Positions 6,660-54,682 of a stretch of DNA of 64,000 nt are shown in pieces. Both the position numbers and the translations under genes were made by a program. Each line of letters opens with the position of its first letter. The first letter of the stretch is position 1. Origin of the DNA: Marsupella aquatica (taxonomy: Eukaryota > Plantae > Marchantiophyta); contig OZ316897.1 of assembly GCA_973895155.1 (NCBI GenBank), positions 5,655,327 to 5,719,326 of the forward strand, given 5' to 3'. The notes under the pieces are model-generated. The model did no database searches. It was not told the origin of the DNA and was given only the letters and a program-made list of their open reading frames with translations.

Positions 6660-8569
6660 TGAACTGAACACCACTATTATCTCTTACTACTCTTGTACTA
6701 CTACTACTAGACCCAGCGGCGAGTCCAACGCTGTCGTCGGAGCTCATTCCGCTGTCTCAAGCGTTGTTCCTCCCGTTCCCCCGACGTCTTACCCGCGACT
6801 ACCCACCAATTGTGGTATTCTTTGTAAGTGTTAGGACCCCATTTGTCCTCAAGCTTGATTTTGTCATCCACGGTGTCAGGATTGGGTTGGTATACCATGA
6901 GGTACGCCCGAGTTGGCGCTGGTGGTCCTCCGCATCTAATTATGGGGTCCTCCCCCTTCAAGAACTCGACGCTTATTAACAAATTGTACATCCGCATGGC
7001 TGCTGGCCCCGCCCGGCTAAACAACTTCCACATAATCATCCCTTTACACTTCATCTCGCCATTAAGATCCACGTTGACTTTGCCTGCTTGTCCGGATTGA
7101 TCCACTACCTCAATTAAAGAACGCGCAAAATAGTACCACCAGAAGTAGCGGGGGTCCGCAAGCAAACGCCCGAAAGGATATCGATTCGTAAGGGCATTTA
7201 TCCACCGCTGGAGTTGAGCCAAAAGACTTAATGGTGGGTTGGCCTCGTGCTGGGGCAGTAGCATCCTAACCCGGGGATCATGCTGCCATATTGAATGATA
7301 TACAGCTATAGGGTTGGTCTCGATGTGTAAACCAAACCCATCGTCGTCTACAAGCTCCCGGAAGAATTGGTGTTGTGTCCAGAAGATTGCAGGTCCGAAG
7401 TAATTTTCTAATCTATAATTAAGTATACTTGCTTCTAACCATCTAATTACATTCTCCGTAGGGGTCACCCTTTCCCAAAAGGATGTCTTCTCCCAAACAC
7501 CCAGACTCAAATCAACTGGATTGAAGGGAAGCTTGTCGGTTTGGATAGTGTCTCCCACACAAGCCACTGCAGCTGGATCTCTACCTAATGAATAAAAATG
7601 AGTCATGGCAATATGACTAAATTGGGGTAGGACAGGGAGGTCTACACAGCTCATCCACTCATTGGTTACTATAAGATGGGAGGTGTAGTAAGGATTGAAA
7701 ATCACACTCGTCCCATTTCTCTCTGCATTGTGCCATCCGGCTGTCTGGAGAAAGGTAACTAGGCGGGGCAGAGTATACTTCCCACAATTGGTGTGGATTT
7801 CTCTCGCCACCTAGGACTTCATCACTACTTCTACTAAATCAAAAACTTTCCTATGTACTGCTAAACTATAGAACCAATGGAGTTTCCATGCCAATCAGTT
7901 GGGATGCATAGTGTTTGCATCTGCCATGAGGGCCATATAATGAGGATGGTCAGCGTGCTCTTGCTCCAGTTCAAACAACAAGATTTGCGTGACTCTGCTA
8001 TTGGCCCTTGCTCCCAATCTAAAATATAAGTCTGTGGGTTGGGTGGACCCAATGGCTCCCAACCATTCAAAGAATGGAAGCATAAATCTGATCCGGACCG
8101 GGATGTTGTACCAAATCCGGTCGTAGTCGTCCGAACAAATGGCCCTCTTGTTAATCCCCGCCGCGGCCAAATACACAGAGAGTTTCCAACCCCATAGCTT
8201 CATCAACTTCAATAGCATTTTGAGATGCTATCTTCTGCCCCATGAATAGTTTCCACGAGTTTACACTCACCTTCTTGAGTTGTTCTAGCCTCCTCTTGTG
8301 CACCGAAATCTTTCAATAACTTAGCTGCCGTGGCAGCCTCATGCCGCAGGCTCTGCACTTCTAGGTCCTAGGCTTTGTAACTGTTTGTCAAAATCCAGAC
8401 CACCTTACTGCATTGTTGGACGAGCTCCTTACTTGCTACTTCCTGTAGCCATCTCTTCCTCTCCTTTTCTCTTCTTTCTCCTTCTTCTTTCAACGTAGCA
8501 AGGTATGCCTGCTTCTTCTCTAATTGTCCTTGTAGCTCATGATTGGCTCGCCTTACTTCTTGGAGCCGG
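6660..8569 (-). mobile_element. 3' part of giant gene-bearing LTR E (left of the inversion breakpoint)
   Basis: Continues the E coiled-coil frame from 25748 (EEKF|CRLQEVRRANHELQGQLEKK); ends in CA before a candidate PBS. Confidence 0.6.
6707..7810 (-). CDS. 367-aa uninterrupted ORF of unknown function within LTR E
   Basis: Long open frame with globular, W/F/Y-rich composition; no motif recognised; non-ATG start, probably the C-terminal part of a longer decayed gene. Confidence 0.5.
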   Translation of the reverse strand: MAREIHTNCGKYTLPRLVTFLQTAGWHNAERNGTSVIFNPYYTSHLIVTNEWMSCVDLPVLPQFSHIAMTHFYSLGRDPAAVACVGDTIQTDKLPFNPVDLSLGVWEKTSFWERVTPTENVIRWLEASILNYRLENYFGPAIFWTQHQFFRELVDDDGFGLHIETNPIAVYHSIWQHDPRVRMLLPQHEANPPLSLLAQLQRWINALTNRYPFGRLLADPRYFWWYYFARSLIEVVDQSGQAGKVNVDLNGEMKCKGMIMWKLFSRAGPAAMRMYNLLISVEFLKGEDPIIRCGGPPAPTRAYLMVYQPNPDTVDDKIKLEDKWGPNTYKEYHNWWVVAGKTSGEREEQRLRQRNELRRQRWTRRWV

Positions 8570-9618
8570 CAAGGGAACAGTTTGTTGAGAACCAGGGAGA
8601 AATTAAGTCAACCAACTCGGCTAGTACTGCCGAGATTCCAGTCTATGGAGGTATGAGACTGGAAAGGCTGGAAGCTGAGCTGGACCTGAATTTGAAGAAG
8701 CAGATTAATATGATCCAAGCATGGCAATACCGGAAGCTTGACTTAGGAGAAGGAAGGGAACTGAACTTAGGGAGAGACCTAACACCTGAGCTCGAGAAGG
8801 AGATCAGTGAATTACTAATTGAATTTTAGGATGTGTTCGCATGGAGTCACCAAGATCTGAAGGGAGTAGACCCAAAACTAGGAGAACACCAAATCGATCT
8901 CATGTTAGGGGCCAAATCATTTTGACAACCGATTTGACGGATGAACCCTAAGTATTCCCTGATGGTAAAAACTGAAATCGACAAGCTAGTAGAAGCCGGA
9001 TTTATCACTCCAGTCCTACACTCAGACTGGGTGTCTCCAATTGTGATAGTTCCCAAGAAAGCTGGACCCGATGGTAAACCAAAGATCCGGGTTTGTCAGG
9101 ATTACAAGAAGTTGAATGAGGCTACGTTAAAAGACCATTTTCCTTTACCCTTTACTGATATGGTACTTGACATGGTAGCCAGTCATGAACTATACTCATT
9201 CATGGATGGATACTCTGGTTATAGCCAAATCAGGATTAGGCAGGAGGACCAAATCAAGATGGCCTTCATCACGGAATTGGGGATCTATGTCTTCAATCGT
9301 ATGTTGTTTGGACTCTGTAACGCACCAGCAATGTTCCAAGGATTAATGGTGAACATTTTCCACAACTACTTGAGCAAATTCATGGAAATCTTCATTGATG
9401 ACTTTGCAGTGTTTGGGAAGGCATCAAAACATGCTAAATACCTCAGGAAAACCTTCATGAGATGCAGAGAGGTAGGTCTCAAGTTACACCCCGATAAATG
9501 TTTCTTTGGAGTAACTGAGGGTGTGCTACTAGGTCAACAAGGTATCAAAGAAGGGCATTGAGATTGATAAGGGTAAGCTAGTAGTATGGCTAGATATCAT
9601 GCAACCTAAGAACATAAA

Positions 9619-10503
9619 GGTAATGGTAATGGTAATGGTAATGTATTATAAGCTCTGGGACCATGAAAGTCAAAGGAGCTGCCACAAAAAGTAAAGTACA
9701 ATGCAATCAAAGAAAAGAGCAACCAAAAGAGATTGCTCAGAAGAGGACAACTATGTCCTGAAAGAAACTATGGACCTAGAGAGCCCTGAAAGATTTTCCA
9801 AACCTATTCTCCTTTCCCTATCCACCGCAAAGATATATCTTCCAAGTTGCTGAGGGGGCAGACCAAACAATGCATACAAATCTTTCACCAAGATTTGAGA
9901 TGCCATCCTAACCCCCTCATAAAACTTGCAAGCAATGAATACATGATATTCATTTTCTATACTAGAGCTATCACATAGTTGACAAACCCTCTTTTTCCTG
10001 TCAATATCCTTCCATCTCCCTTGTTCTACTTCAAGGTGGTGTGAGCTTAGTCTATACTGAGCAATAAGTTGTCTAAGTTGTACTGAGATAGTGCTAGATA
10101 AGTATTCTTGTTCTCGATATTTCTTCATGGGGTTCACATCTCTCATGTAGTATTGCTGCCGTGGGCTAGGTTCATGCCAAAGTTTGTGCAAAGCCTTTTG
10201 CTCAAGTTTTGCTCTTAGCTTGGTTGGGTGTGTTGGCCATTCATGTTCAGGAAAATCCCAAGCATGGGCCCACCTGCACACATCTGCATACCACCCTGTA
10301 GCTGAAGATGAGCGCAAGGCATGAAAAGGAAATCTGTTTTCCTCCAACTCTCTTACACGCATGATGTATTTGAGTGTGTGGAAGAGTGCCTCCACCTCCA
10401 AAGGAAACAAGCCTGCCTCTCTGCAAGTGTAAGTGCATATGGGGTTTGTGACTTGATCCCAAGCTCCATCTCAAGAAATAGCTTTTGCAGCCCCTCAATC
10501 TGT
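9619..10503 (-). mobile_element. RTEX-like LINE copy 2 (3' ~880 bp) inserted in Gypsy pol
   Basis: (GGTAAT)n tail at 9619; splits PKNIK|VRSFLG; microhomology at the junctions, no clear TSD. Confidence 0.95.
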
Positions 10504-12422
10504 GAGATCTTTCTTGGGTGAATTGGCTATTATCGCCGGTTCATCAAGGACTTTGTCAAACTAGCTTTACCATTAATCAACATGCTCAAAGCAGGTGTAG
10601 ACTTTGAACCCACACCAGAACGAGTAATAGCAGTAATAGAATTGAAGCAAATGTTAGTAGAGGCCCCAATCATGATAGCACCAGACTGGAACAAGGATTT
10701 TCATGTCTTTGTAGATGTCTCAGGCTTCTGTATCGGCTCAGTACTAAGTCAGTTGGATGAGAAAGGAAGGGACCATCCCATATACTTTGCAAGCCGCCAA
10801 CTTGCCGATGCCGAACGCAATTACTCCACCACCAAAAGAGAAGCATTAGGAGTCATTTATTCCTGTAAAAAGTTTAGGCATTATTTACTGGGGTACAAAG
10901 TAATCTTTCATACCGATCATGAAAGTTTGAAGTACCTAGTGAATAAGTCGGACCTTACAGGCAAGGTAGCAACATGGATTTTGCTATTACAGGAGTTTGA
11001 CTACGAGCTAAAAATCAAGCCAGGAAAGCTACACGCCAATGCCGACTTCTTTTCAAGGATCATAGGTGAACCTGCCACGGATTGCATCGATGATCGATTT
11101 CCCGACGAGGAGCTATTCGTTGTGGAAATAGCTGATACATGGTACCCTGAGATTTTACAATTTCTCAGCACATCCAGATTACAGCCAAGGCTAAACAGAG
11201 AGCAAGCCGCAGTCTTTCTGCGGAAGGTCAGACAGTATCAGTGCATTAAAGGCATCCTACACACGTATGGAATCAGCGGCACGATTCAAAGGTGTTTGGA
11301 AAAAGGAGAGGTAAAACGAGTCCTACGGGCTATGCATGGGGAGGAAGCCGGAGGACATTTTGCTCCAGCAACCACATCTAAAAAGATATTAAATGCAGGT
11401 TACTGGTGGCCCACCTTGCACAAGGATGTCTATCAGTTTATCAAACAATGCAACCCTTGTCAGCGAGCGGGAGGACCAAGGGCGTCCACAAGACATCCAC
11501 TACACCCTATTCTACCTCTGGCACCATTTGAGAAATGGGGTATTGACTACTTGGGACCTCTGAAACCATTGACCCATCCTTGAAAAAACAAGTACATAAT
11601 CCTGGCCACGGATTATGCAACTAAGTGGGTAGAGGCCAGGCCGACAACAAAGGATGATGCAATTACTACGGCTCGATTCATGTATGAGCAGATCTTCACT
11701 AGGTATGGCGCACCCCTAGAATTAGTTAGTGATAGAGGAACCCATTTTCTGAATGATATAATTAATCGTTTAAATGAGCAATATTTAGTTAGACATAGGC
11801 CTCCTACTCCCTACCACCCAAAGGCAAATGGGTTGACAGAACAAGCAAATGGAATTATAGGAAAGATATTGAACAAAACCGTAGCTCAGAACAAACTCGA
11901 TGGGATGATAAATTGTTTGCTGCTGTTTTTGCTTACAATTTAGCCTATAAATCCACTACCGGTCATACACCCTTTTTCTTAACCTTTGGACAGGAAGCCC
12001 TGGTACCCATGCAACTTGAGATTCCTACATTTCAAGTTACAATTGAGGAGAGAACCTCAGAGGAGGAAAGCCTAAAGGAGCGAGAATATAGGTTAGAAGC
12101 TTTAGAGGAGGCGAGAATGATTTCAGCCGAGAGAGTAGAATATAGACAGAATACCATGAAGCAGCAGTATGATAAAGGGTTTAAACTAGTTAGTATTCAC
12201 ACAGGAGATCTTGTATTACTTTATGACAGTAGGTATAGTAGGTTTCCGGGGAAACTTTACACTCGCTGGTTAGGACCTTTCAGGGTATCAATGAAGTTCT
12301 CTAATGGTTCTGTGCAATTGGCCAACATAACTGGAGAGGTGTACCCAGTTCGCATCCATTACGACCGCCTCAAGAAATACTATATGGACGAAGATGAAGT
12401 TGTTCGCGAGGACGCTTCACAA

Positions 12423-12437
12423 TTAAGTGGGGAGCTA
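12423..12437 (+). promoter_or_regulatory. Polypurine tract of element A/B
   Basis: TTAAGTGGGGAGCTA immediately before the LTR TG at 12438. Confidence 0.75.
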
Positions 12438-15400
12438 TGTGATGCCTAGCCAGGAATCACTAGGCCAGTTAAGTGGGGAAAATGGAGGTGTACCCTATAA
12501 ACACATTAGTATAGTAACAAAAACAAGGAAAATATAAACAATTAAGGATGACTATGGAACCCGGGCAGAGGCCAGAGGTAAGGACGTCGGGGGAGAGAAC
12601 ACGATTAAGGTTAGGGTGCGCTAAGCATCGGCGGCTAGGGGTAACCAATGGGAGGAAAGACCAGAGGAGGAGAGGGGTAAGGACCGCTCGCGAGGAATGG
12701 TGGCTCATTTGCAAGCACGAACTGGGCAGACGACTATGGAAGGCCAACTACTATCAGCTGCTTAGGCAAGCACTCTGGGCGGGAGCAAATACCAACGATC
12801 GAGTCAAGGAGGGTATGAGCAACATCAATCAAGTGGCATATTTTTGGGGATGCCTGTTCGAACGGGCAACTAAGTACATTAGGACTTACGAGAACAAAGA
12901 ATCGGAGAGAGAAGCTCGAGAATGGCAGGAGCTCCCTCGACTGTGGGAGCTGCAAAAGTCTGCCTTCTTAGGAGGAGAACTCATCAAGGCCGAGTTCTTG
13001 TGGACTCCTACTGCCAATCAGCTTGATGACCTTCTGTTTTGCGAAGACAGAATCGTCGGCATTCGAGAAGCCATCAACCACTGCAATGATGCGCACTAGG
13101 AGTTGAAGGGTAGCACGGAGGGGTGGACAAAGGCAACTGTGCTAGGAGAAACATCCATGGCAGCCAAGATGAAGAGGAAAGGAAACAACAACGAAGAGGC
13201 CACCCCGGCAAAAAGAACGAGGTCGGCGGCACCAAGGAAGCCAGTAGAGCAGCAGAACAGGAGGTAGGGAGAAGCCGAAGAGGAGGAGGTCGATCCCATC
13301 AATGCCATTCCAACAAAGGATGACACCTGGAAAGGCTGGGTGGTGACCCTACCAGAGGAAGTGCAATTACATTTTGCACGGGAGGAGGATGCATGCTTTA
13401 CGGCCATGCAGACCAAGAAGTACCAGGGCTTCATGGCTGGATCCGGCTTGGAAGCCTTCATAAGATTACCATGGCTGAAGCCGGAGGTGCCGGACTCAAA
13501 CTTATTAGAATTCGTGGGATCATGGGAACCCGAGACCAATTCCACGAGGGTGTATGGGAAGGATTTCTATCTCACTCCCCGGGTGATTGTCGAGGTGTTT
13601 GGCTTGCCGATGGGTAATAAGACAAAGGTTGATACCAGGAAGACCTTACCTGACAAGGAGTCCCGGTCGTTCCCAGGACCATCAACAAAGAATGGCTTCT
13701 TCCGGAACACCTGCACCAACCCGCACATCGGAGAGATGATCGATTTCTTGCGGGTGACCATGCATTGTAACTTGCCGAGGGTAGAGATCGGCAAGGCTCA
13801 GGTCTACTTGGCAGAAAGGTCAGACCCAAGCCAGGATTACAACGGGTACCTCCTCAACCAACTGAAGAAGATCTTGAAGGAGGAACAGCAGGTGATCGGC
13901 GTGGGAAGCGTGTCCCGGCTTGGCTATCACATGCCGCTGTTGTGCCGGTATGCCAGAAGTCAAATATTTTCCCCAGTACTTCCCCTATCGGCAAGGGCAC
14001 CGGAGGAGGTTCCGGAGTAGAGGCCGGCAATAGAAGAGCCCAACCAGCCTGCCAGTCCTACGATCGAGCAGGTGTTTCGGCCAAGGAAAGAAGACTTGCC
14101 GATGCAACAATCAGGCATGCAGAATCTGCTAAAATTGCTGGAGAAGGAGAGAACGGCACCGGCAACGGCACCGGTACAAGCACTGCCCCAGAGGCCAGCC
14201 TAAGCCGACTCAAGAGGGAAAACCCCTTTACCGGAGCCAACGAGAGAAGGAGGCCGAAACACAAGCCGGGAGTGCGAATGTATGTGGGAGCCTCAAGCCC
14301 CGAATCGGAGGCAGAGCAGCCTAAGGCTCCTTCCTGCGGAAAGCAGAGGGAGAGGACAACCTGGAAACCAGAGGAGGAACCAGAGCCCGTGATCTGTGAG
14401 GCCGTTTTCACGGCAGGACCAGGGGAACGAAAGGGGAAGCCAGGAGTCCAAGCAATGGAGGAGGCGGTGGAGGACTACAACAATGATAACTCCGGCTATG
14501 GGTCGGATCATCATGTTCCAGGAGTAAGGACCTGTGGCCGGTTTATCCCCACGCTTCCAAGAGTAGTTCGAGGGGACCCCACCCAGCAGAGTAGCCCTGA
14601 GTCTCCCCCACCAGAGGTTGCTCCCCCGAGCTTTGACGGTATAAAGCAGACGGCACAAGATTTTCAGGAGCGACTTAGGGAGGAAGAGAAAGCAGCCCTG
14701 GCTAGGGAGAAAGATTTACCAGGAGGAGATTGGCCGGAGGACATCAGGCGGCTTGCCGAAAAAAGAAGCAACCCTCTTGCCACCGTAGAAGAAATCCGCA
14801 AGGCGGCTTGGGAACAGAGGCCGAGGTGGTTGATGCCGATGACTTCTACTTACTCTACCTATGCTAAAGATAGAGCCATGGAGTACGGGGAGATGTGTGG
14901 GGACCTGGCGCTCAACATCTTTGGGGAGGAGTTGGAGCAGGGACCTTTTTTCCAGAGGGAGATGTTGGAGAAGCACCGATTAGAAGAAGCGGTGGCTTTG
15001 GAGAGAAGCAAGAAGGACGAGGTCATCCGGCGGCTTAGGGAGATGGAAGCCAAGGTGGAAGACCTGCAGGCGGCCAAGAAAGCCCAAGATGAGCTACGGA
15101 TTAAGCGACATGAGCTAAACATCATGCAAGGACAATTGGATGCCGCTCAGTCTGGCAATCAGATTATCAAAGATAAACTGACTTGGACCCAAGGAGAGTT
15201 GGCCGGTGCGGTCAAGGACAGGGAAAAGTGGAAGCACGAGCTGAGGGACGCAGAGGAGGCCCACATAACCGCCAACAACCGGGCCATGGTGGAGACTCAG
15301 AGAAGGGAGAGGGCGTTGAAAGGAGAGCTCGAAGATATCCGCGGAGCCCTTGAGCAGAAGGAGGCCGAGTTAGGGAAATCCTATCAAGGGATTATTGCGC

Positions 15401-17141
15401 TGCAGCAGGAGCTTGCATCCCTGACAGCCAGCTTCAAGGCCGACCTGCGTGAGAAGGACAACCAGCTCGACCAGACTTATGCCAAGATGAATAAGATGGA
15501 GTCTGAGGTCGTAACGGAACTCGACAAGGAGCTAAGAGCAACCCAGGAGGAGAGGGCTACCTTAAAATTGGAATTGGAGGAAGCCAGAAAGGAGCTGCAG
15601 GAGGGACGGAAGGACCTGGAGGAAGCCCAGGAGGAGTTGGAGGAAACCACCAGGAAGATGGAGAACTTACAGCGGTGGGCCAACAACCAAACGGAGCGGC
15701 TGAAGAAACAGGCCGCAGTATTTAAGTGCTTAGCTTCATCTGGTCCAATTCCAATTGTGGGAACTCCGTTACCAGGAGGGGTACTGGCCAAAGGACAAGC
15801 CGAGACACACGCCCCGGTGCGGAGGTAGGTAGCAAGGGGAAGGGACCAGCTACCAAAATAGGGAAGAAGAAGAAGCGGAAACCTTCTGGGTCGGGGAGTT
15901 ATACGGCTTACCAAGCCGTTGTGACCCAGGAGGTCAACCCGACACCAACCTCCGGCATGGTCACGGTAGTAGATCCACCTGTTGAAGAAGGTGGGGATGG
16001 CAAGGCCGAGGCCGGGATAGCTATTGATGAAGCCAAGGTACCAGATCCTCCACTAGAACATGTCGGGGAGGCCGAAGCCGTATCAAAGGCCGTGACCGAT
16101 GCTGAGGCCAAAGCCGAGGGTGGACCCAGTCAAGCCGATGAAGAGTTGACTCGGTCCGGGGCAAGTAATCTATCAGGGGATGGACCGACGGCAGTGGCTG
16201 CGGGGGAAGCGTTGGGGGCGTCCATTGAGGATCTGCCACCGGTGTCGTGACGGTGCAAGGGCGCCGTTCCTTTTAGGAAGGGCGGACGTGGAGGTAGGAG
16301 GCGTGAGTGGGCAGGGCGGGCTCAGATCTCCAAGTTTAGGATTAGGATCAAGACCAGGAGACGGCCCTAACACTTAGATTAGTGGGATGGCGGATCCACT
16401 GGTAGGAGCAACACTTGTGCTCCTGCCTCGTTGTACAGTTAGGTAGATTATAGGTAGGATAGATTAAGCTTACGCAGCAAAGTTCTGGACAGATCCGCTG
16501 CCAGGATAAATATCTGGGCAGCGGGGAGTCTAGGGTCTTTTCTTTAGCAAGTTTTTAGTTGCACCAGCAGGGCTGGGATCAAGTAGTAAGAGAAGCTCTC
16601 GGTTAGTTATACAATGACCCTTGTGTATATTCATGTTTCCTCATGCCTAAGAACTGAATAGAGTTGGCCTCACGGCTTAGTTCGTAGAGCTTGTGTATGA
16701 GATGTACTGTTTGTATGGCAAGTGCATGGTATAACTCAGTCAGAAGAAGTCATTTTGCTATTTGTGTGTCGCATTAACTTGTGCGAAGAGTGCCCACATC
16801 AATGAAGGGAAGTAGCAAGGGAGTGAGAGTTGGATGTGTCGAGCTGAGAGAGGTCTTAGCGGCATTGGGGATCATTCGGGCGGCGGAATCCAAACATACC
16901 TAATGGAAGACCAGGAGAGGAATACAAGGGAAGGCCTAGAATAGGCCGACTAAGTATCTCATGACCCGATGAAGGATCTGTCCAGTATATGTGTGTAAAA
17001 TGTTAATAGTAGTAGAAGGAGAGTTAAGCAGCGTCCCATGCCGCTAAGCCACGGAAACGGCCTCGCCGAGGATGAAACCTGCGGGAATCGGCTTGAGCAA
17101 GGGGGTTTTCTTGGGTTTGGGGAGCAATGGAACGCACCACA
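12438..17141 (+). mobile_element. 3' LTR (4.7 kb, gene-bearing) of Gypsy element A/B
   Basis: TGTGATG...CACCACA; follows integrase and PPT; colinear with 28381-40090; followed by TSD TAGGT (17142-17146). Confidence 0.92.
12548..16250 (+). pseudogene. LTR-encoded long accessory protein (~1,230 codons): conserved domain + low complexity + coiled coil + basic KKKKRK patch
   Basis: ORFs 12548-13099, 13340-14020, 13942-15828 and 15726-16250 join into one frame when stops and 1-nt deletions are corrected using the other LTR copy; one TAG (14018-14020) is shared by both LTRs. Confidence 0.75.
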
Positions 17142-17912
17142 TAGGTTGATGGAACCTGGAATTTGGAAGACCTCGTCGGGGAGGCGGAGGATGGCTTCCC
17201 CAAAGCCGATGTACTTATCTTTGTCGAAGAAGATCTCAAAGATCTCTTCCTCCTTATAGTACTTGCTTTCAAAGTTGAGTCCAAAATCACAGATATATCC
17301 AGTGGGAACGGCCTAGCAAACGGACTCGGCGTTCAAAATGCTTCTCAACGGCATACCTCCGTGGATTGATATCAGCGAGCAAAGCGGCAAGATGGCTTCC
17401 TATCGCAAGGAATTGATACCAAAACCGGATAGCTGAGCTGGACAGGATAGGGCCGGTCATATGGCAAGGTATGCTTGGTTGCTAAGATAGACAGAGGAGC
17501 TGCTAGCAAAGCTGGCGTGAGGAGTGAACTGATAATTCAGAGGCGGGGAAGGGCTTGCCTTTTATACCCTTGCGGGGCATCAACCGATCGGCCCCTCTTG
17601 CTTTTGATAGTCAAGTCCCTCACGCTTAAAGTGTACCGGCCACTCCTCAGGTCCGGGTCAGGGCATGTCAGAGAGCCGCCTCCCGGATCAGTTATACAGA
17701 TCCAAGGTAGACGGCCATAACGCACTTGTAATCTGGTGATGCGCCACCAGCCTGAGCATGAATGCTCTTTATTGACTAAATTTGTCCTAATCATCATGAC
17801 TAACTAATTTTGTGTCGCTATGCTAATACTATGGACTACTAAGTCCACTTTGCATGTGCTTAGCACGAGTTAAGCCAGATTACTTATTACCAGCCGTGCT
17901 GGCGGTGTCACA
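17142..17912 (-). mobile_element. Element C part 1: 5' end of a gene-bearing LTR (family of D)
   Basis: Starts TGTGACA at 17912 (minus); TATAAAAG at ~17560; ORF start MTGPILSSSAIRFW homologous to D (MSHTILSSSAIRFW); joins 40096 across the TAGGT TSD. Confidence 0.8.
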
Positions 17913-18046
17913 ATTACACTGTATTATGTCATATGTTTTGGCAGATAGTGTGAAGATCAGAACATGTACAGCTAAACAAGAAATGTATTTTCCACTTTCA
18001 TAATGAAATGAAAATTAAATCTGAGTGCATGTGTTCTGAACTTTAA

Positions 18047-18310
18047 GATGGAGTCTAGAAGAGTGTCCATAGGTCACCTTGCCCCTTGGTCCCATCCAAC
18101 ATTTGCCAGGTTGCCTCTACATCACCCAATGAGGGTTTCCCAACACGATCAGAAGCTCTAGAATTGGGAACAAGCCAGAGTGGCACGGTCAGGTCTAAGT
18201 TTACAAATGAGATGTCCTTGCACTCAATGCAATGGCTCCCACACCAGAGTCTTGAGGCAGATTCATGGGCACTTCGTGATTCATGGGAGACATGTGCGGA
18301 CCCCATCTTT
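18047..18310 (+). mobile_element. Possible CACTA transposase-associated domain fragment
   Basis: MRCPCTQCNGSH...IHGHFVIHG resembles the CPCxxC...HLxxxG motif; very short. Confidence 0.35.
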
Positions 18311-19542
18311 TTTATCTCTTTCAGTAAAGCACCATTATTACCCTAATACAGTTAGGATAGCCATAATATGTACTTAAGATACCACCACCAAACAAAGGAA
18401 GGGGAAGTTGCGTACACAGTCACGATAGGTACCGTACCTTTACCAAGTCATGAGTAAAGAGGCAATCATGAACGCCCCCAGAATAACGTCGTAACTAGGA
18501 TCATCAGAATTGGGCCGCTTGACCAAGGCATTTCACGATTACTACAAGACAACGACCGTCCCATTCGTCCGGACGTTTGCAAACCAAAGAGGCACCACAT
18601 TTTGAGCTTAAGGCAGAGGGGCGGACTAGTTCTCATCTCACAACGCATCAAAACGCTTGACAAACCACTCCCCCCCTTACATGAACACTCGGCAATCACA
18701 AGCACCGCCATCCACACACTCCTCACTTACATCGAGCAAAAATGGAAGCGGCAAGAGCACAAAGAGTAGAGGTTCCCCCGACCAAGAACAAGAAGGGAGC
18801 CCTGTTGGCCGAAGAGAAGATCCGCAACTCCATTTGGGAGGTCCAACATATCGAGGAAAGCCGACCGGTACTTGGCAGAGCTAGGATTTATGGCTTGGTC
18901 CGAATGGACCGCTATCTATCAACATCTCAAGCAGGAGAAATCTGCTCACAAATCATTAAGGTAACAATGTCACCGGAGGGGATGTTTATTACGTACCGGG
19001 GAAAGACTTATACTTTCTCCAACCAAAAGTTGTGTGCAATGTTCAATCTTCCTAGGGTATGAGGGCTGTCTCTCATGTACCAAGTAGACCCCCTCGAGCA
19101 AGCAGGCGTACCAAACTTCTTGCAACAGGTGGAGGTCCAGATAAGTTGGGGAAATATACAGTATGGTGCCATCCAGCAGAAGGAGTATCATAAATTCATT
19201 GAGTTTTGCACCAAGTGGGTGATGGTTAAGAGCGGGTACCATCATGCCACAATACCAAGAATTGCCATTACGAGGGCCCTATTCGTGGGATCCCTCCATC
19301 CGCTTCAATTATGGAAGGCAAGTGTATCCACTATGATTGATGCAAAAGGTTGTCCAAAGTTCCCGTCACTATTAGCGTATCAACTAGGAGTTGTAGTACA
19401 CAATGTTTTTGGTAATGGTAATGGTAATGGTAATGTATTATAAGCTCCGGGACCATGAAAGTCAAAGGAGCTGCCACAAAAAGTAAAGTACAATGCAATC
19501 AAAGAAAAGAGCAACCAAAAGAGATTGCTCAGAAGAGGACAA

Positions 19543-22500
19543 CTATGTCCTCAAAGAAACTATGGACCTAGAGAGCCCTGAAAGATTTTCCAAACCTATT
19601 CTCCTTTCCCTATCCACCGCAAAGATATATCTTCCAAGTTGCTGAGGGGGCAGACCAAACAATGCATACAAATCTTTCACCAAGATTTGAGATGCCATCC
19701 TAACCCCCTCATAAAACTTGCAAGCAATGAATACATGATATTCATTCTCTATACTAGAGCTATCACATAGTTGACAAACCCTCTTTTTCCTGTCAATATC
19801 CTTCCATCTCCCTTGTTCTACTTCAAGGTGGTGTGAGCTTAGTCTATACTGAGCAATAAGTTGTCTAAGTTGTACTGAGATAGTACTAGATAAGTATTCT
19901 TGTTCTCGATATTTCTTCATGGGGTTCACATCTCTCATGTAGTATTGCTGCCGTGGGCTAGGTTCATGCCAAAGTTTGTGCAAAGCCTTTTGCTCAAGTT
20001 TTGCTCTTAGCTTGGTTGGGTGTGTTGGCCATTCATGTTCAGGAAAATCCCAAGCATGGGCCCATCTGCACACATCTGCATACCACCCTGTAGCTGAAGA
20101 TGAGCGCAAGGCATGAAAAGGAAATCTGTTTTCCTCCAACTCTCTTACACGCATGATGTATTTGAGTGTGTGGAAGAGTGCCTCCACCTCCAAAGGAAAC
20201 AAGCCTGCCTCTGCAAGTGTAAGTGCATATGGGGTTTGTGACTTGATCCCAAGCTCCATCTCAAGATATAGCTTTTGCAGCCCCTCAATCTGTTGCCACC
20301 CAGATTTAGACACACCTGCTCCCCAAATTGGTGCTCCATAAAGAATGACTGGTTTCACCAAAGCTCCAAAGAGATGTTTCCTTAACCTCCAAGTGTGTAG
20401 ACCAGCTCTTTTGCATTTGTTCATGAATGCATAAAAAGCTCTGTACCCATTGGCAGCCCTAGATTTTACACATGAGGCCCAACTCAAGTTTTGAGAGAAC
20501 TCCACCCCAAGGTATTTGTAGGTCCTCACAAATTCCACCAGATTCCCTTGGAAGTAGAGCTCTGGATTTTGTCGTGTGCCAATGCCCAAACACTTGGTCT
20601 TCTTGAGGTTGACTACCATCCCTGTTGCTTGACAAAACTCCTCCAAGGCATTGAGATGTCTTTGCAAAGCTTCTTGAGCATGAGCAAGTAGGACCACATC
20701 ATCTGCAAATATAAGAAGTTGGAGGACAAACCTACCCAATTGAGTGCCAACTCCACCATGCTCCTCCAAAATGTTGTGTAGCTGATCAATGAAGATGCCA
20801 AATAGAGTTGGTGAGAGAGGACAACCTTGGATCACCCCAAGAGTGCTCCAGATTTCTTCAGAGGTTTCCTTTGAAAGTTTGATGCGCACTTCTTGGTACA
20901 ATTTAGAAACAGCCAACCTGAGCTCTTCAGGCACTTCCAACTCCACCATCCTATCCCAAAGCTTGGATCGGGAAACTTTGTCAAAGGCCTTGGAGAAGTC
21001 CACAAACAAGCAAAATAATGGTTTATGTGGAGATTTGGCCTTTTCACACAACACCCTCAAGCAGAGAATGTGATCCATAGTGCTGAATTCTCTCCTAAAA
21101 CCTGCTTGTGAAGGTGCCCTTTTCATCTCACTCTCCAACCAAGAGCTTAATCTGGCTTCAAGTAGTCCTCCCAAAACTTTAGCAAAAGTATTGCCTACCA
21201 TGATGGTTCTGTAGTTGTGCACATCGTCCTTGTTGCCTGCCTTGAAGATAGGCACCACTCTTCTGGTCATCCAAGCTTTAGGTAAACCTAAAGCCATTGC
21301 TTGATTCAGCTCATGCACCAAGTTTGTTAATAAAGAGGGTCCTCCCCACAAAAGAAGCTCCAAGTTCAGGCCCAACAGATCTTTAGCTTTCCCATGTTGC
21401 ATGTGGGAAAGATGCACCTTCACCTCCCTCTCTGTAAACTGAATGGTGTCCCCAAGGGGCAAAGGCATGCCACTAGCATCTGGAAAGAAATACAAGGATG
21501 TGACATAGGTTACCAGGTCCTGGTGATCCAAGGGGGGAGTAGTCTTGCCTGATTGCATTCTCTCCCAAAAACGTTTTGGATGTTTGATGAACTCCTCACA
21601 TAGTGATTGTTGATGACTCTTCAAGAAGCACCTCTTCTTGTGTTTGATGAAGTTCTTGTACATAGTGAATGCCAAAAATCTCTTTTCCCCTGAATGTGAT
21701 CTTGCTTGCATCCTTGCTCTAGCACAATCCTCGTCAAACCAAGCCTTCATGTTTTGCTTTCTAGGGGGTTTGGTGGAGAAAGTAGAGGTTGCTGCTTGTA
21801 CTATGACTTCTGAGAGCTCAATCTGATCATCCAGGGTATGGAGAAGATGTTCAAAGTTGGCTTTGAAGATGACTTCTCTATCAGGGTCTAGAAACAGAGG
21901 TTTGGGTACTGGCTTTCTATGCACTTTGTTTGGGATTGTGGTCAGGTCAAGATGGAACAACAAAGGCAAGTTTGAAGACTCTGGTTGTTGATCAAGTATT
22001 TGAAAGTCAACCACTCTAGTGGCAGAGGTAGGTGAGGCAAGAAGGTAATCAATGGTACTACATCCTTGTTTAGATCTAAAAGTGTAACCAGATGATTGGG
22101 GAAATCTCTCAAGCCCATTCAATATTCTTAGATTACAAGAAGCTCCCAAATGCAAAAAGTGACGTGTCATGTCATTTGTTCTGGTGTCAAGAGCCTCCTC
22201 TCTCACCCAAGGTAGCTCTTCACTACATGATGACCAAGGTAAAGTTCCTAAGTCCTCACTTTCAGTAAATTGTTCATTAGATACCCTGGCATTAAAGTCC
22301 CCCACTATCCATGTCTCCCCTAGTGGTGATATATCATGAATGACTTGGATTAACCTATGAAATGGATAATGTGCATCAGCAATTCCCATCTTATAGACAT
22401 TCATATTAAGGGGAGCAAAGTAGGTGACAATCAGAAATGATGGAGTACCTCTGGTATGAAGTCTCACCACCATGAACTGCTTGCTGGGATCTTCATGCTC

Positions 22501-22749
22501 AATAGAGGTGATGTGTTGAAGTTGATTCTTGGTGTAGACAGCAATGCCTCCAAACCCTCTTCCCCGTGTGGTCTTCTTCTCATTGAAGATGGATTGTATG
22601 CAAGTAAAGCCTTTAATGCTAGGTAGAGCATTTCCCTCATATTCCCAAGTCTCCGTGAAAAGCAAGATGTCAAAATTCTCAAACAAAGGTTCCCCTCCAA
22701 TTGCTGTTTCTATGGAAAGTCCTGAAACATTCCATGCCATGACTCTCAA
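19543..22749 (-). CDS. LINE ORF2: APE endonuclease + reverse transcriptase + C-terminal Zn finger
   Basis: 1068-aa open frame; WNVSG, FTETW, VGDFNAR, TIDY; QAGFR, VDFSKAFD, QGCPLSP, FADD, YKYLG; RLSSHHLEVEQGRW..CQLC..EYH..C (RTEX-type). Confidence 0.95.
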   Translation of the reverse strand: MRVMAWNVSGLSIETAIGGEPLFENFDILLFTETWEYEGNALPSIKGFTCIQSIFNEKKTTRGRGFGGIAVYTKNQLQHITSIEHEDPSKQFMVVRLHTRGTPSFLIVTYFAPLNMNVYKMGIADAHYPFHRLIQVIHDISPLGETWIVGDFNARVSNEQFTESEDLGTLPWSSCSEELPWVREEALDTRTNDMTRHFLHLGASCNLRILNGLERFPQSSGYTFRSKQGCSTIDYLLASPTSATRVVDFQILDQQPESSNLPLLFHLDLTTIPNKVHRKPVPKPLFLDPDREVIFKANFEHLLHTLDDQIELSEVIVQAATSTFSTKPPRKQNMKAWFDEDCARARMQARSHSGEKRFLAFTMYKNFIKHKKRCFLKSHQQSLCEEFIKHPKRFWERMQSGKTTPPLDHQDLVTYVTSLYFFPDASGMPLPLGDTIQFTEREVKVHLSHMQHGKAKDLLGLNLELLLWGGPSLLTNLVHELNQAMALGLPKAWMTRRVVPIFKAGNKDDVHNYRTIMVGNTFAKVLGGLLEARLSSWLESEMKRAPSQAGFRREFSTMDHILCLRVLCEKAKSPHKPLFCLFVDFSKAFDKVSRSKLWDRMVELEVPEELRLAVSKLYQEVRIKLSKETSEEIWSTLGVIQGCPLSPTLFGIFIDQLHNILEEHGGVGTQLGRFVLQLLIFADDVVLLAHAQEALQRHLNALEEFCQATGMVVNLKKTKCLGIGTRQNPELYFQGNLVEFVRTYKYLGVEFSQNLSWASCVKSRAANGYRAFYAFMNKCKRAGLHTWRLRKHLFGALVKPVILYGAPIWGAGVSKSGWQQIEGLQKLYLEMELGIKSQTPYALTLAEAGLFPLEVEALFHTLKYIMRVRELEENRFPFHALRSSSATGWYADVCRWAHAWDFPEHEWPTHPTKLRAKLEQKALHKLWHEPSPRQQYYMRDVNPMKKYREQEYLSSTISVQLRQLIAQYRLSSHHLEVEQGRWKDIDRKKRVCQLCDSSSIENEYHVFIACKFYEGVRMASQILVKDLYALFGLPPQQLGRYIFAVDRERRIGLENLSGLSRSIVSLRT

Positions 22750-22761
22750 GGTCCCGATCCA

Positions 22762-23535
22762 TCATTTAGAAACAACTCTCTTCTTATTGGTAACAACAGC
22801 TTGTCCATTGCGCAAGTAGGCTACCAATCCTTGGTCTTTGGCTACCCTCACCTTCTCAAGCTCAATTTTCCTTGCTTGGACTTGTGTGGGAGTCAGATCA
22901 TCATCCAACCAAATCCTTAGCCCTTTAAGCATGCTCCTGTTAGCCATCACTCTAGCTTTCTCGGATTCAGCTGCAAACTTCACCAAGATTGGACGTGGAA
23001 GGTCCCCCTTCTTTTGCCCAATCCTATATGCTTGCAAAATGATAGGGTCATGCACTTTCATCTGAGATTGGAAGAATGAAATTGCTACCTTCTTGGTGTC
23101 TTCCTTCTCCTCCTCAACAAGGCCTGATATTTTGCAGTTGCTGACTCTTGCATGCTGGTTCTTGTGTTCTTCCTCTAGTGCTCTCCTCTCCTCCTCCTTG
23201 GCTTGGACAAATTTCATATGTGATTGTTTTGCAGCCTGTGCAAAGGTTTTGAGCTTTTCCTCAATCTCCCCTACAGCCTCATGTATCACTGATTTCTCTG
23301 GGCACATACTTTTCTCCATGTCTCCAAAACACGATGCAAGCAATGAGAGTTGCTTACCATTCTCCTGAGTTTGAGATCGAAGATCACTAATCAACCTCTT
23401 TTGCTTGACATTCTCATTCTTTAGCTCCGTCACCTCCTTGTTGAGTGTGGTAATCTCAATTGCGGAGTTTTCAACCACAACTAAGATTTTCTCAAGCAAA
23501 GCCTTGAGATGGGCAATCTCCTCCGTTGCCATCAC
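22762..23535 (-). CDS. LINE ORF1 (coiled coil + RRM-like/CTD-like region)
   Basis: 257 aa; N-terminal heptads; ISGL.E, AYRIG, PRPILVKF, IWLDDDLT. Confidence 0.9.
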   Translation of the reverse strand: MMATEEIAHLKALLEKILVVVENSAIEITTLNKEVTELKNENVKQKRLISDLRSQTQENGKQLSLLASCFGDMEKSMCPEKSVIHEAVGEIEEKLKTFAQAAKQSHMKFVQAKEEERRALEEEHKNQHARVSNCKISGLVEEEKEDTKKVAISFFQSQMKVHDPIILQAYRIGQKKGDLPRPILVKFAAESEKARVMANRSMLKGLRIWLDDDLTPTQVQARKIELEKVRVAKDQGLVAYLRNGQAVVTNKKRVVSK

Positions 23536-23597
23536 AAAGCTGAAACTGTTGTTAGAATGTACTCTTAGACGACAAATAGAAATTGGGAGCAGTAGAG

Positions 23598-24640
23598 GAT
23601 GTCAGTTGCAGCTCTACCTTTGCCAGTGATACACTCTCGCTGTTTGCAACACTCTGGCAAAGTCTGAGCTCAAACCGCAGCCGATTGCCCTTCCAACTCG
23701 AAGTGAAATTTTGCCCAAGCTAAGAATTGCGAAACTGGAGACATAACAGATCGTGCATGCTAAAGTGCATATCAAACGATGTCGGTTGCAGCTCTAACTT
23801 TGCCAGTGATACATTCTCGCTATTTCCAATGCTCTGGCAAAGTATGAGCTTAAACCGCAGCCGATTTCCCTTCCAACTCGAAGTGAAATTTTGCCCCAAG
23901 CTCATAATTGCAAAACTGGAGATGTAACAGATCGTGCATGCTAAAGTGCATATCAAACGATGTCGGTTACAGCTCTAACTTTGCCAGTGATACATTCTCG
24001 CTGTTTCCAATGCTCTGGCAAAGTCTGAGCTTAAACCGCAGCCGATTTCCCTTCCAACTCGAAGTGAAATTTCGCCCCAAGCTCATAATTGCAAAACTGG
24101 AGACGTAATAGATCGTGCATGCTAAAGTGCATATCAAACGATGTCGGTTGCAGCTCTAACTTTGCCAGTGATACATTCTTGCTGTTTCCAATGCTCTGGC
24201 AAAATCTGAGCTCAAACCGCAGCCGATTGCCCTTCCAACTCGAAGTGAAATTTTGCCCCGAGCTTAGAATCGCGAAACTGGAGACGTAGCAGATCGCGCA
24301 TGCTAAAGTGCATACCAAACGATGTCGGTTGCAGCTCTAACTTTGCCAGTGATACATTCTTGCTGTTTCCAATGCTCTGACAAAATCTGAGCTCAAACCG
24401 CAGCCGATTGCCCTTCCAACTCGAAGTGAAATTTTGCCCCGAGCTCATAATCGCGAAACTGGAGACGTAGCAGATCGCGCATGCTAAAGTGCATACCAAA
24501 CAATGTCGGTTGCAGCTCTAACTTTGCCAGTGATACATTCTTGCTATTTCCAATGCTCTGGCAAAATCTGAGCTTAAACCGCAGCCGATTGCCCTTCTAA
24601 CTCGAAGTGAAATTTCGCCCCAAGCTCAGAATCCCGAAAC
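23598..24640 (-). repeat. 5'UTR tandem array of 180-181-bp monomers (~5.8 units)
   Basis: Unit starts at 23598, 23778, 23959, 24140, 24321, 24502. Confidence 0.95.
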
Positions 24641-25748
24641 TGTGTTTGATGAATAGTTCTTGTACATGTTTGAGATCCAGGAGACAGTCAGTAGAGCTCC
24701 GCCGGAAAATTCGGACTCAGGAGAGTCAAAGTCAGAAGATCAAGAAGAAGCCCAGGAGATAGTACCAGTAAGGGCAGAGTTGGGATCCACGGCTAATGTT
24801 AATGTGGATCCACCATAATACAATGAAGAGGATTTTGAGATTGACAAAGATGAAGAGGAGGGCAAAGCACCTCAAAATTTGGATGTAGAGAGCAAAGGAG
24901 GGGCAGAAGCCTTACAAAACCTGAGTGAGCAGGCGAGCAATGTCGCAAGAGCCTCAAGAGGAAATGGAGGGCAATAACCCTCCCGGAGGAAGATGAAGAT
25001 GAAGATGAAGAAGAAGAAGAGGGGAGGAATGCCACCTTCCAACAACCCATGCTGTCCGAACTTCCGGATACCACCAATCTGGCAGAGTTAAGGACTTCCA
25101 CCCAACATCTGGCGTTCATAGGGAAGCCAATCCCCAACACCAGGGATCTACGTTACTGGTTGAGAGATTTGAAGGGGGCCAAGGCAATGGCGAGGATAGC
25201 AATCATGGAATCTGAGGGCAAGATTTGGGACATGGAGAAGCTAAGGGTAGCAAAAGAGAAGGTTGAGCGACTCCTCGTAAAGGTACATAAAAAGTCTGAA
25301 TCTAACAAGCTCATATTGAAATAGCTGGAGGACTCGAAGGGATTGCTAGACAAGGCGAGGGAGAAAAATGAGGAAGTAACCACAGCTCTGCAACAGGCCC
25401 AAGAGGCGGTCCGGATAGAGAAGGTTGGGACACAGGCCCTAAAGGTCAAGTTAGGGAAGGCCCAGAAGGAGAGAAAGAAGCTACATGAGCTGCTGGCTGA
25501 CAAGGAGGAAGAATGGAGCCACCTATTGTCGACCGCCAAAGAAGAGTTAAAGGCGGTTTTGTATCCCAGCAGAAGGCCGATGAGCTGCAAAGGGTAATTG
25601 AAGAGTTGGAGCAGAAAGTAGGAGAAGGAGAACAATTGGCACTCTGACTGTCCGACCAGATGGCTGCGCATGGGAGAAGGGCGGAAGAACTTGCGGAGAA
25701 AGAGGCGTCAGCCAGACTGGGGGCTTTGGAGAGTGAGGAGAAGTTTTG

Positions 25749-28257: not shown

Positions 28258-28357
28258 ACGAGCTCTCTCCCGTTGAATCGCTCTTCCTCTCTCGACGTAG
28301 GTTCAGTCATTACCCACGCTTCCTTCCTAACTTCATATCTCACGGGCTTAAGAAATG

Positions 28358-28376
28358 CCCCCTCCATCTAGCGCCA
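28358..28376 (-). promoter_or_regulatory. Primer-binding site of element A/B
   Basis: TGGCGCTAGATGGAGGGGG 4 nt after the LTR-terminal CA; cognate tRNA not determined. Confidence 0.8.
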
Positions 28377-34424: not shown

Positions 34425-34575
34425 TGGGCGCAAAGAGCGTTTTGGCGTAAAAGCGCAACGGCGCTTTGGAGCGAAAGCGCAATGGCGCTTTGGAGCAAAA
34501 GCGCAACGGCGTATCGGCGGAAAAGCGCAACAGTGCAATGGAGCAAAGGCGCAACAGAGCAAGAGCGCAATGGCG
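34425..34575 (+). repeat. ~24-bp tandem repeat with core AAAGCGCAACGGCG in LTR G
   Basis: About 6 degenerate units directly upstream of the LTR ORF; a further copy at ~37445. Confidence 0.8.
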
Positions 34576-34637
34576 GATCACTTGCCATTGATCTCTTCGG
34601 ATCGATAGTTGGCGACAATGCCTTGTTTCTTGTTACT

Positions 34638-44464: not shown

Positions 44465-44565
44465 TCAGAGGAGATAGTAGTGGCGACCTAGAGAGAACGA
44501 GAGAGCTGGGGTCGAAGCTGGCGCGCGGACTGATGGACTGGTGCACTACAAAGGGTTGGCTCCCC

Positions 44566-44573
44566 TTTTATAC
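44566..44573 (-). promoter_or_regulatory. Candidate TATA box ~100 bp upstream of the LTR D ORF
   Basis: TATAAAAG on the minus strand; same motif at the same relative position in element C (~17560). Confidence 0.6.
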
Positions 44574-52326: not shown

Positions 52327-52330
52327 GTAC

Positions 52331-54667: not shown

Positions 54668-54682
54668 TAATGGTAATGGTAT
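54668..54682 (-). repeat. Tail-only (CATTAC) micro-insertion in L1 ORF2
   Basis: About 10 extra nt CCATTACCAT shift the frame between LQAIPI and YHMMFL. Confidence 0.6.

Follow-up and report, generated by a model that had tools for sequence, protein, structure and literature searches.

In retroviruses, genes are found in U3, as with MMTV sag and the overlap of HIV nef, and these ORFs span 200-320 codons. In plants, surveys of extra ORFs in LTR retrotransposons place them in the internal region, upstream or downstream of gag-pol (PMC7264820; PMC6317226, in part). Proteins of the TRP28/PMD type combine a plant transposon-type domain with, often, an SMC-like coiled coil and have been proposed to be nuclear regulators (PMC7264820; PMC11963269 and PMC6317226, both in part). 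According to parts of PMC3485330, PMC1142308, and PMC6317226, the LTRs of Ogre, Retrosat2, and Diaspora contain regulatory motifs and repeats, and the extra ORFs lie outside the LTR. Phygy and Selgy are short and have no extra ORFs as described in part of PMC6317226, which gives NCGN as the target preference of Phygy. Our literature search found no description of an LTR-borne gene of the kind reported here in plants.

The window, a 64,000-nucleotide stretch of the Marsupella aquatica genome, contains one Ty3/gypsy retrotransposon of ~15 kb that was confirmed to own both 4.7-kb LTRs, copies A and B (Table 1). The TG start of copy A abuts the purine tract at the integrase end, and its CA terminus is followed by TAGGT. 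In copy B, TAGGT precedes the TG start, and the CA terminus is followed by a T run, a primer site starting with TGG, and gag. The primer-binding site may be of the tRNA-Arg type; the non-chromovirus branch uses non-Met tRNA primers (Ala, Arg, Asp, Lys, Trp). The two copies aligned end to end in three blocks around the nested inserts F and G at 96% identity; transitions made up 165 of the 187 mismatches across 4,707 columns. Pfam matches (PF03732, PF00098, PF00078, PF17917, and PF17921) gave the domain order gag, RT, RNase H, integrase, with no match for the protease. No chromodomain was detected at E≤0.5 in 11799-12446, and no archaeal RNase H was present between protease and RT, between RNase H and integrase, or 3' of integrase. 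The internal region, ~5.6 kb, holds gag-pol alone. A and B face in opposite directions because a 17-kb inversion split pol; across its junctions the pol frame stays in phase, as does a second, unrelated coiled-coil frame. The sequence-only reading had recognized a true LTR pair from the TG..CA ends, PPT, PBS, and common 5-bp TSD, and this was upheld, with the correction that the copies are mutually inverted.

Table 1. Features of the retrotransposon and neighboring units, in window coordinates.
Feature	Position	Strand	Remarks
Pol remainder: RT, RNase H, integrase	8568..12449	+	LINE fragment insert at 9619-10503
Inversion, 17.2 kb	8564..25763		4-bp microhomology at each end; breakpoints ~8568 and ~25759
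Conserved motif and PPT, overlapping pol end	12402..12437	+
3' LTR, copy A	12438..17141	+	4,704 bp, TG..CA
Accessory frame, copy A	12548..16250	+	1,237 codons; stops 13097, 13265, 14018; frameshifts near 14180 and 15820
Conserved globular domain	13340..13990	+	18 homologs; transitive, sub-threshold link to Transposase_32/PMD
Predicted long coiled coil	14932..15720	+	E/K/R/L-rich, 1 proline in 263 residues; weak Pfam coiled-coil matches below cut-off
TSD TAGGT, 3' of copy A	17142..17146	+
Host unit, 5' part	17147..17912	-	target of element insertion; LTR-like start 67% alike to H
Gag (PF03732), zinc knuckle, protease region	25760..28302	-	runs to inversion breakpoint
T run and PBS, after 5' LTR	28360..28380	-
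5' LTR, copy B	28381..40090	-	read 40090 to 28381; split by inserts F and G
Unit G, solo-LTR-like	30704..33154		2,451 bp, TG..CA, TSD ATCGG; nested in copy B, without long frame
Unit F, solo-LTR-like	34184..38705	+	4,522 bp, TG..CA, TSD CTGGC, no gag-pol; nested in copy B
TSD TAGGT, 5' of copy B	40091..40095	-
Unit H, solo-LTR-like	40922..44930	-	4,009 bp, TG..CA, TSD GAGGG, no gag-pol

A long sense frame lies inside both LTRs. In the two-copy alignment, from 12548 to the stop ending at 16250, its phase contains one common stop compared with 51, 40, 32, 42, and 27 in the other five, so the frame is far beyond chance. The sequence-only reading had described this frame, with its end at 16250, as ~1,230 codons covering ~80% of the LTR and starting 110 bp inside it. 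We obtained 79% of LTR length for the full frame, whereas a start at 12815 would leave ~1,150 codons, or 73%. The start given earlier applies to copy A, the only one with the ATG at 12548. The true start is likely 12554 or, by an N-terminal motif common to the relatives, 12815; the latter is only suggested, because the N-terminal profile, run against the window, hit the B copy at E 0.003 and the A copy at E 1.3. Most lesions had been noted as private to one LTR, and 16 of 17 frame breaks were indeed so, the exception being the stop at 14018 in A (33984 in B). B is much more decayed than A, with 9 versus 2 private stops and 3 versus 2 frameshifts. Both copies of the gene are dead; at insertion, the frame was open or nearly open across 1,237 codons. 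The stop found in both LTRs may mean that the gene was broken before insertion, in the parent copy.

We discarded dN/dS between A and B as a selection test because the divergence of an LTR pair arises wholly after insertion; the observed pN/pS of 0.81 is expected for post-insertion decay and gives no support for selection in the copy A/B family. Rows with letters other than those of A (40 of ~730, mostly A-private) were left out of the selection tests. Contigs spanned the full LTR length in all four runs, indicating that the family amplified with the gene already in the LTR.

The frame encodes a real protein family, of which 18 homologs reached E≤0.001; the best gave 39% over 225 residues (E 3e-48). 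When pieces of A and 20 alignment members were searched against Pfam, the conserved domain had no match, and the A domain gave none at E≤1. A weak link runs through the relative L005, whose ORF aligned with Transposase_32 (PF20167) over 160 of 177 positions (E 2.5e-4; 21.4 bits, below the cut-off of 45) and whose domain matched that of A at E 3e-5. Atlas scores for the PMD, DUF1985, and Transposase_32 clusters were 0.81-0.84 and serve as leads only. Basic patches (KRK, PAKRTR, and KKKKRK) were present. No transmembrane helix was found in three pieces covering the frame, the top 19-residue Kyte-Doolittle mean being 1.16. With its conserved globular domain, its long coiled coil, and basic patches but no membrane helix, the product most likely acts in the nucleus as a regulator of chromatin or transcription that favors the element, like the Retand TRP28 and Ogre PMD proteins, and not as an envelope protein. 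The longer proteins searched included no full-length homolog, which is weak evidence. The structure models had mean pLDDT of 50 and 61. A PDB sequence search gave no match at E<0.27, Foldseek against PDB and BFVD gave none at E≤0.001, and VIA-align gave none (best Z 4.0); none of these blanks informs on the fold. Locus searches confirmed relatives of the extra ORF in 0 of 34 viral and 0 of 48 metagenome contigs, and the RNase H-integrase search returned 0 of 23 viral contigs.

Five related loci, L001-L005, were compared with the element. The homologous gene lies inside the LTR in two (L003, and L004 as judged by motif), in the space separating pol from the PPT in L002 and L005, and is unplaced in one. 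A motif preceding the LTR start is common to A, L002, L003, L004, and L005; together with the PPT and TG, it is directly 3' of pol in A, L003, and L004 and 3' of the extra ORF in L002 and L005. L003 has, ahead of its PBS, an LTR end that forms a 9-nt inverted repeat of this LTR start; the 1.37 kb that follow lack this end and contain 299 ORF codons. The L004 frame is open across 632 codons, and in L002 PPT-like tracts flank the ORF on both sides. The sequence-only reading missed that the gene, rather than being new cargo, is a homolog of the extra ORF that L002 and L005, both close relatives, have in Athila style 3' of pol and 5' of the PPT; its position is therefore the novelty. Among named elements, those closest in RNase H-integrase are from liverworts. 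In a tree of 50 RNase H-integrase rows, which included no REXdb-labelled references, the element joined Calypogeia and further bryophyte-type rows, with the seed-plant rows placed elsewhere. L005 branched outside the clade of A and L001-L004 (100/97, midpoint root), and branching among the A, L001/L002, and L003/L004 clades was left open by the tree (84/51, midpoint root).

The window also holds solo-LTR-like units with homologous genes. Unit H carries an ~880-codon frame that has three internal stops and lies ~105 bp downstream of a TATA-like box, and the frames of unit F at 34422-37254 are homologous to the extra ORF of L001/L002, L002 being closest (37%). The host unit has a TATA-like box, and an H-type frame begins in it and resumes at 40096-40921 and 44931-45350. 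Comparison of the H and host frames (pN 0.15-0.25, pS 0.64-0.78; dN/dS 0.12 on an unsaturated block) shows purifying selection on this gene pair. TATA-like boxes lie 5' of the frame in A, H, and the host unit, although such words are common by chance. At the DNA level, one match only, at chance level, was found among A, F, G, H, and L001-L005. H and F, both TG..CA units that have 5-bp TSDs but lack gag-pol, are what survival of the gene in solo LTRs would predict; together with the homolog inside the LTR of L003, they lend independent support to the earlier view of the LTR-borne gene as a design and not an accident.

We propose, with a probability of roughly 0.68, that in this Ty3/gypsy element a ~1,200-codon gene moved from the interior and now lies in U3 under its own promoter, the U3 position being a prediction. 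The ancestor would have carried an extra gene of Athila type with a polypurine tract on either side; Athila4 and Calypso are reported to have one extra PPT (PMC2829016, in part). Plus-strand priming at the upstream tract, or an equivalent rearrangement, would turn everything downstream into U3, and reverse transcription would then copy the gene into both LTRs. The gene promoter would be near the LTR start, where TATA-like words occur at 12496 and 12533, and the LTR's own poly(A) site would terminate the gene transcript. Transcription of gag-pol would begin 3' of the gene, within the final ~0.9 kb of the LTR, and more TATA-like words and poly(A)-like words occur there at 16657-16801. Solo LTRs would then be complete transcription units. 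No relic second PPT scored above the shuffled range inside A, F, G, or H, which leaves the PPT switch without a direct trace. PPT-like stretches seen by eye ~100 bp after the F frame and 20 bp after the A frame scored within that range and were not counted. Because the motif is upstream of the gene in A and downstream in L002/L005, a PPT switch would require it at both tracts.

That A and B are two separate insertions, or their pairing an assembly artefact, is hardly credible. The copies are inverted, 11 kb apart, and separated by other elements, but the identical TSD sits on their outer sides, the gag-pol halves are complementary with reciprocal in-frame junctions and 4-bp microhomology, and the host frame resumes across the TSD. 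Two insertions would still leave a 3' LTR (A) and a 5' LTR (B), each with the gene inside. The gene itself could be a passenger that entered the LTR by rearrangement, was useful only when internal, or is now supplied by other families, and is decaying in this family. Both copies are broken, one stop is common, and pN/pS is 0.81, as this would predict. However, the frame was open or nearly so at insertion, and a double hit explains the common stop with a chance of ~0.2-0.25 (a rough figure; 7 events on ~41 sites estimated by eye give 0.26, whereas the alignment has 6 events). The LTR-borne homologs H/host are under purifying selection, the L004 frame is open, and the family multiplied with the gene already inside its LTR, so we consider a passenger unlikely.

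We give similarly low odds to an LTR-borne position being ancestral in the bryophyte lineage, with the internal genes of L002 and L005 arising through LTR shortening or separate events and no PPT switch. Several subfamilies (A, H/host, F, and L003/L004) have the gene in the LTR and no relic PPT was found, whereas the internal-type L005 branches outside the other relatives, the related ORF is internal in seed-plant Athila (PMC7264820; PMC11728184, in part), and the F frame is closest to L002, where the gene is internal, suggesting more than one change of position. It is more improbable still that the gene lies in R/U5, with a promoter at the LTR start producing a long RNA in which an Ogre-like 5' ORF, absorbed into the repeat, precedes gag-pol, itself expressed by splicing or reinitiation. 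The TATA-like words close to the LTR start would suit this arrangement, as would the 3.3-kb LTR of Retrosat2 with its short U3 and 2-kb R (PMC3485330, in part). From the standard replication cycle, however, it would need ~4.6 kb of minus-strand strong-stop DNA, and the gag start would sit behind a 3.7-kb upstream frame; moreover, the homology is to a 3' extra ORF, not a 5' one, and TATA-like and poly(A)-like words also occur 3' of the gene.

LTRs are usually taken as non-coding, and a three-quarters-coding LTR changes what a solo LTR is. Recombination that removes the element body, the host's main purge, would leave the accessory gene intact, and each lone repeat would carry its own copy of a gene whose product is likely a nuclear regulator. 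In bryophyte annotations, LTR sequence may account for many "hypothetical proteins". Sister families with internal and LTR-borne copies offer a natural comparison for the function of Athila-type extra ORFs. A wider proposal, which we regard as possible but doubtful, is that a bryophyte non-chromovirus Ty3/gypsy lineage repeatedly moved a large Athila-type gene into U3, making solo LTRs self-contained genes (promoter, 600-1,200-codon ORF, and terminator) that go on supplying, in trans, a factor for chromatin or anti-silencing once the body is lost.

Compared with known systems, the element resembles MMTV sag and HIV nef in that reverse transcription places an LTR-encoded protein gene at both ends, but those belong to vertebrate retroviruses and have no homology to its gene. 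Phygy (moss) and Selgy (Selaginella), REXdb non-chromoviruses of non-seed plants, likewise have an internal region that is nearly all polyprotein; unlike Phygy, the element is ~15 kb long with a 1,237-codon extra frame and the 5-bp TSD TAGGT. Ogre, Retrosat2, and Diaspora share LTRs of 3-5 kb (very long, up to ~5 kb). Retand TRP28 (PF04195) and Ogre PMD (PF10536) are large accessory proteins, as here, but their ORFs occupy the internal region (antisense and 3' in Retand, 5' in Ogre), and Tat elements (TatI-III, Ogre, Retand) have an additional archaeal RNase H that this element lacks. The Athila clade (Athila4, Calypso, Bagy-2; Athila ORF1 PF03078/Transposase_32 PF20167), whose sense extra ORF separates pol from the 3' LTR, is also non-chromoviral, without archaeal RNase H, and with its sense ORF 3' of pol. 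L002 and L005 have the exact Athila layout, the L005 ORF a weak PF20167 match, and L002 an additional PPT as in Athila4 and Calypso (PMC2829016, in part). In contrast to Athila, the element has no membrane helix in its accessory protein, its RNase H-integrase belongs to a bryophyte clade that excludes the seed-plant rows, and its ORF lies 3' of the working PPT, inside both LTRs.

The repeat closing the element (copy A, the 3' LTR) was compared with its opposite-strand partner (copy B, the 5' LTR). Self-BLAST of the window paired 12438-17142 with opposite-strand blocks at 40090-38706, 34181-33155, and 30703-28380 (95-96%). In copy A, a purine tract at the integrase end is followed by the TG start, and the CA end is followed by TAGGT; in copy B, TAGGT precedes the TG start, while a T run, a primer site beginning with TGG, and gag come after the CA end. 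The sequence-only reading had taken the repeats for true paired LTRs with TG..CA ends, a shared target-site duplication (TSD) TAGGT, and a primer site (PBS) and gag after copy B, and both self-BLAST and the junctions bear this out. It had also suggested aligning the LTRs without F and G, the two units nested in copy B; this global alignment gave 187 mismatches in 4,707 columns, including 165 transitions (K2P 0.041). Changes clustered at CG and CHG positions (9.5% and 6.2% of sites, versus 0.9% at CHH), as in methylated plant repeats. The last 125 bp of the LTR recur in a third copy, 87% alike, with the same CA end and a different flank. In each copy, the polypurine tract (PPT) core is found a second time, about 30 bp into the LTR.

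The coding parts of the element lie on opposite strands, split between protease and RT by an inversion with 4-bp microhomology at both breakpoints, across which the pol phase is preserved. A second coiled-coil frame is cut by the same inversion, and its phase also matches across it. Because the breakpoints and the phases in both cut frames match, the sequence is best read as one element split by inversion, which would explain its opposite-facing LTRs. Minus the nested inserts, the element measures about 15.0 kb, with 4.7 kb in each LTR and 5.6 kb in gag-pol.

Features located in the window
Feature	Position	Strand	Remark
DUF7869 (PF25273) frame	2322-5021	+	probably a DNA transposon
367-codon frame	6707-7810	-	no Pfam match; downstream of the cut coiled-coil frame
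Inversion	8564-25763		17.2 kb
RT, RNase H, integrase	8568 to 12449	+	
Copy A	12438-17141	+	
Second PPT core	12466-12484		
LINE, young	19411-23601 (-), 9619-10503, 51282-58771		endonuclease and RT, 1,072 codons; one near-complete copy, a second on the other strand, several truncated or rearranged pieces; copies 98-99% alike
Tandem array	23598-24642		about six units of 181 bp; immediately upstream of LINE ORF1
Cut coiled-coil frame	24660-25759 (+), 8567 downward (-)		
Gag, protease	28302 to 25760	-	
Copy B	40090 to 28381	-	
G	30704-33154		
F	34184-38705		
H	40922-44930		
Nested units	17147-17912, 40096-45563		
Ty1/copia element, decayed	47757-50507	+	gag, zinc knuckle, RVT_2
Third copy of LTR end	50691-50569		

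A long sense frame within both LTRs, ending at 16250, had been proposed from the sequence alone, and it held. In the two-copy alignment, this accessory frame runs from 12548 to the stop ending at 16250 (1,237 codons) with one stop common to both copies, versus 51, 40, 32, 42, and 27 in the other five phases. Copy A carries two private stops and two frameshifts, and copy B carries nine private stops, three frameshifts, and two nested inserts; copy B contains a 5-nt insertion. The lesions are thus mostly private to one LTR, as had been claimed; since 16 of the 17 breaks are each confined to one of the two copies, those 16 arose after insertion. The sole common break, the stop at 14018, may either have been inherited from a broken parent or reflect a double hit, the chance of which is roughly 0.2-0.25 (0.26 from 7 events on about 41 sites; 6 events are listed in the alignment). 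Between the copies, pN/pS was 0.81, which fits decay, as expected, and says nothing on earlier selection. Both copies of the gene are dead. Only copy A has the ATG at 12548, and the first common ATG is at 12554; an N-terminal motif of H and of two relatives (P0128 and P0143) aligns with the ATG at 12815, with weak statistics.

For the 250 residues encoded by 13268-14017, a search of 1.84 billion representatives found 18 homologs at E<=0.001; the best match had 39% identity over 225 residues. Ten homologs were looked up: two were Calypogeia fissa proteins, one was a cluster with 'hypothetical protein' names only, and seven were unnamed. The accessory pieces of copy A matched no Pfam family above cut-off. 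The domain is followed by a linker of low complexity, 263 coiled-coil-like residues, and an acidic tail; basic patches are present, and no hydrophobic helix was found in the protein. Protein-cluster similarity leads pointed to DUF1985, PMD, and Transposase_32 clusters at 0.81-0.84, all below the bar of 0.9, and the predicted models (pLDDT 50 and 61) gave no structural match. Judging from architecture and analogues, the protein is likely to be a nuclear regulator. Among the analogues, Retand TRP28 proteins that carry SMC-like coils have been proposed to act as regulators (PMC11963269), a nuclear signal is predicted for a sunflower Athila ORF bearing Transposase_32 (PMC11728184), and host PMD proteins have a silencing role and common ancestry with Gypsy PMDs (PMC5418596).

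Related elements were then compared for the position of the gene. Eighty loci were fetched with the RNase H-integrase region, and ORFs were catalogued for 10. A domain profile matched 3 of the 80 loci at E<0.001 (L001, L002, and L005). In the five best of the 10 loci (L001-L005), a sense ORF follows pol in every case, and BLASTP linked these ORFs to one another and to F or A; the remaining five had no sense ORF after pol within the available contig DNA. The LTR start is marked by a motif of about 35 bp ending in PPT and TG. In A, L003, and L004, it stands directly after pol, ahead of the ORF. In L002, a circular contig, it comes after the ORF and opens an LTR of about 1 kb that ends at the PBS, and a second PPT-like tract, lacking the motif, lies right after pol. 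The motif likewise comes after the ORF in L005 (score 17.1 versus a shuffled maximum of 9.7); as the motif profile was built from A, L002, L003, and L004, L005 is its only independent match. For L003, whose contig includes the LTR end, this end is a 9-nt inverted repeat of the LTR start and does not recur in the 1.37 kb containing the ORF. Placement among L001-L005 is therefore LTR-borne in two and internal in two, with L001 unplaced: both LTRs of our element carry the gene, at least one distant relative likewise has it in its LTR, and others have it internally.

The two PPT-like tracts of L002 (3754-3769 and 6542-6577) flank an intact 745-codon extra ORF in a complete, bryophyte-type element, a candidate ancestral layout. 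The ancestral gene would have been internal, between two PPTs; if the upstream PPT took over priming, the gene would become part of U3. Athila4 and Calypso are reported to have an extra PPT (PMC2829016), as does L002. The downstream PPT left no relic above noise, so another rearrangement is possible. Placement in U3 is preferred over R/U5 because of replication logic; in A, H, and the host unit (the H-type unit interrupted by the element), TATA-like words occur upstream of the frame.

H and F have TG..CA ends and 5-bp TSDs, neither gag-pol nor an internal repeat was found in them, and the interrupted sequences define their limits independently. H contains a frame of about 880 codons whose domain matches that of copy A at E 1e-14, and the F frame shows 37-38% identity to the L001 and L002 frames. 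We infer that both are solo LTRs. The start of the host unit is 67% alike to that of H; differences between the two frames at third versus other positions numbered 140 versus 65 and 56, and 60 versus 29 and 18, with dN/dS of 0.12 in the unsaturated block. The third insert, G, has no long frame and is possibly a gene-less short-LTR relative. Near the end, 79 bp of its terminal sequence match H at 76%, and it contains short tandem repeats. Four units that carry an ORF or resemble an LTR sit within one another's accessory genes: the element and H interrupt the host unit, and F and G interrupt copy B. This nesting could point to insertion targeted at these GC-rich LTR genes, or just to a dense repeat nest.

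Contigs from four runs of two studies, one run possibly the window's own source, were aligned to 11900-17600. Between 7,898 and 27,336 contigs per run aligned, covering 30 of 30 bins; summed contig depth, which is not a copy number, dropped steeply in the two bins beyond the LTR end. Position 12438 is the exact entry point of one contig joint. The LTR family thus appears abundant.

The best named RNase H-integrase matches were from Calypogeia fissa (57-65% identity), followed by Marchantia, Riccia, and Physcomitrium. In a 50-row tree (the window, 29 of the 80 loci, and 20 of 120 listed proteins, picked as top or named matches), the element grouped with four rows, three of them Calypogeia and one unnamed (support 100/99), in a clade that also contains L001-L004 (99/96), apart from seed-plant rows. 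Neither an archaeal RNase H nor a chromodomain was found in the element, which reads as a bryophyte non-chromovirus, Athila-like in make-up, a description that stops short of a REXdb clade.

Genes carried in LTRs are familiar from retroviruses, as in MMTV sag and HIV nef. Plant extra ORFs are described as interior, 5' or 3' of gag-pol, with LTRs up to about 5 kb (PMC7264820), and the available part of PMC6317226 agrees. The accessible portions of PMC3485330, PMC1142308, PMC7466625, and PMC12885004 describe no LTR-borne gene. By title and abstract beginning, no plant case was found in literature searches aimed at ORFs in LTRs; prior mention in repeat databases or supplements is possible. The LTR-borne accessory gene is real: its type is familiar from other elements, and its position and size are not.
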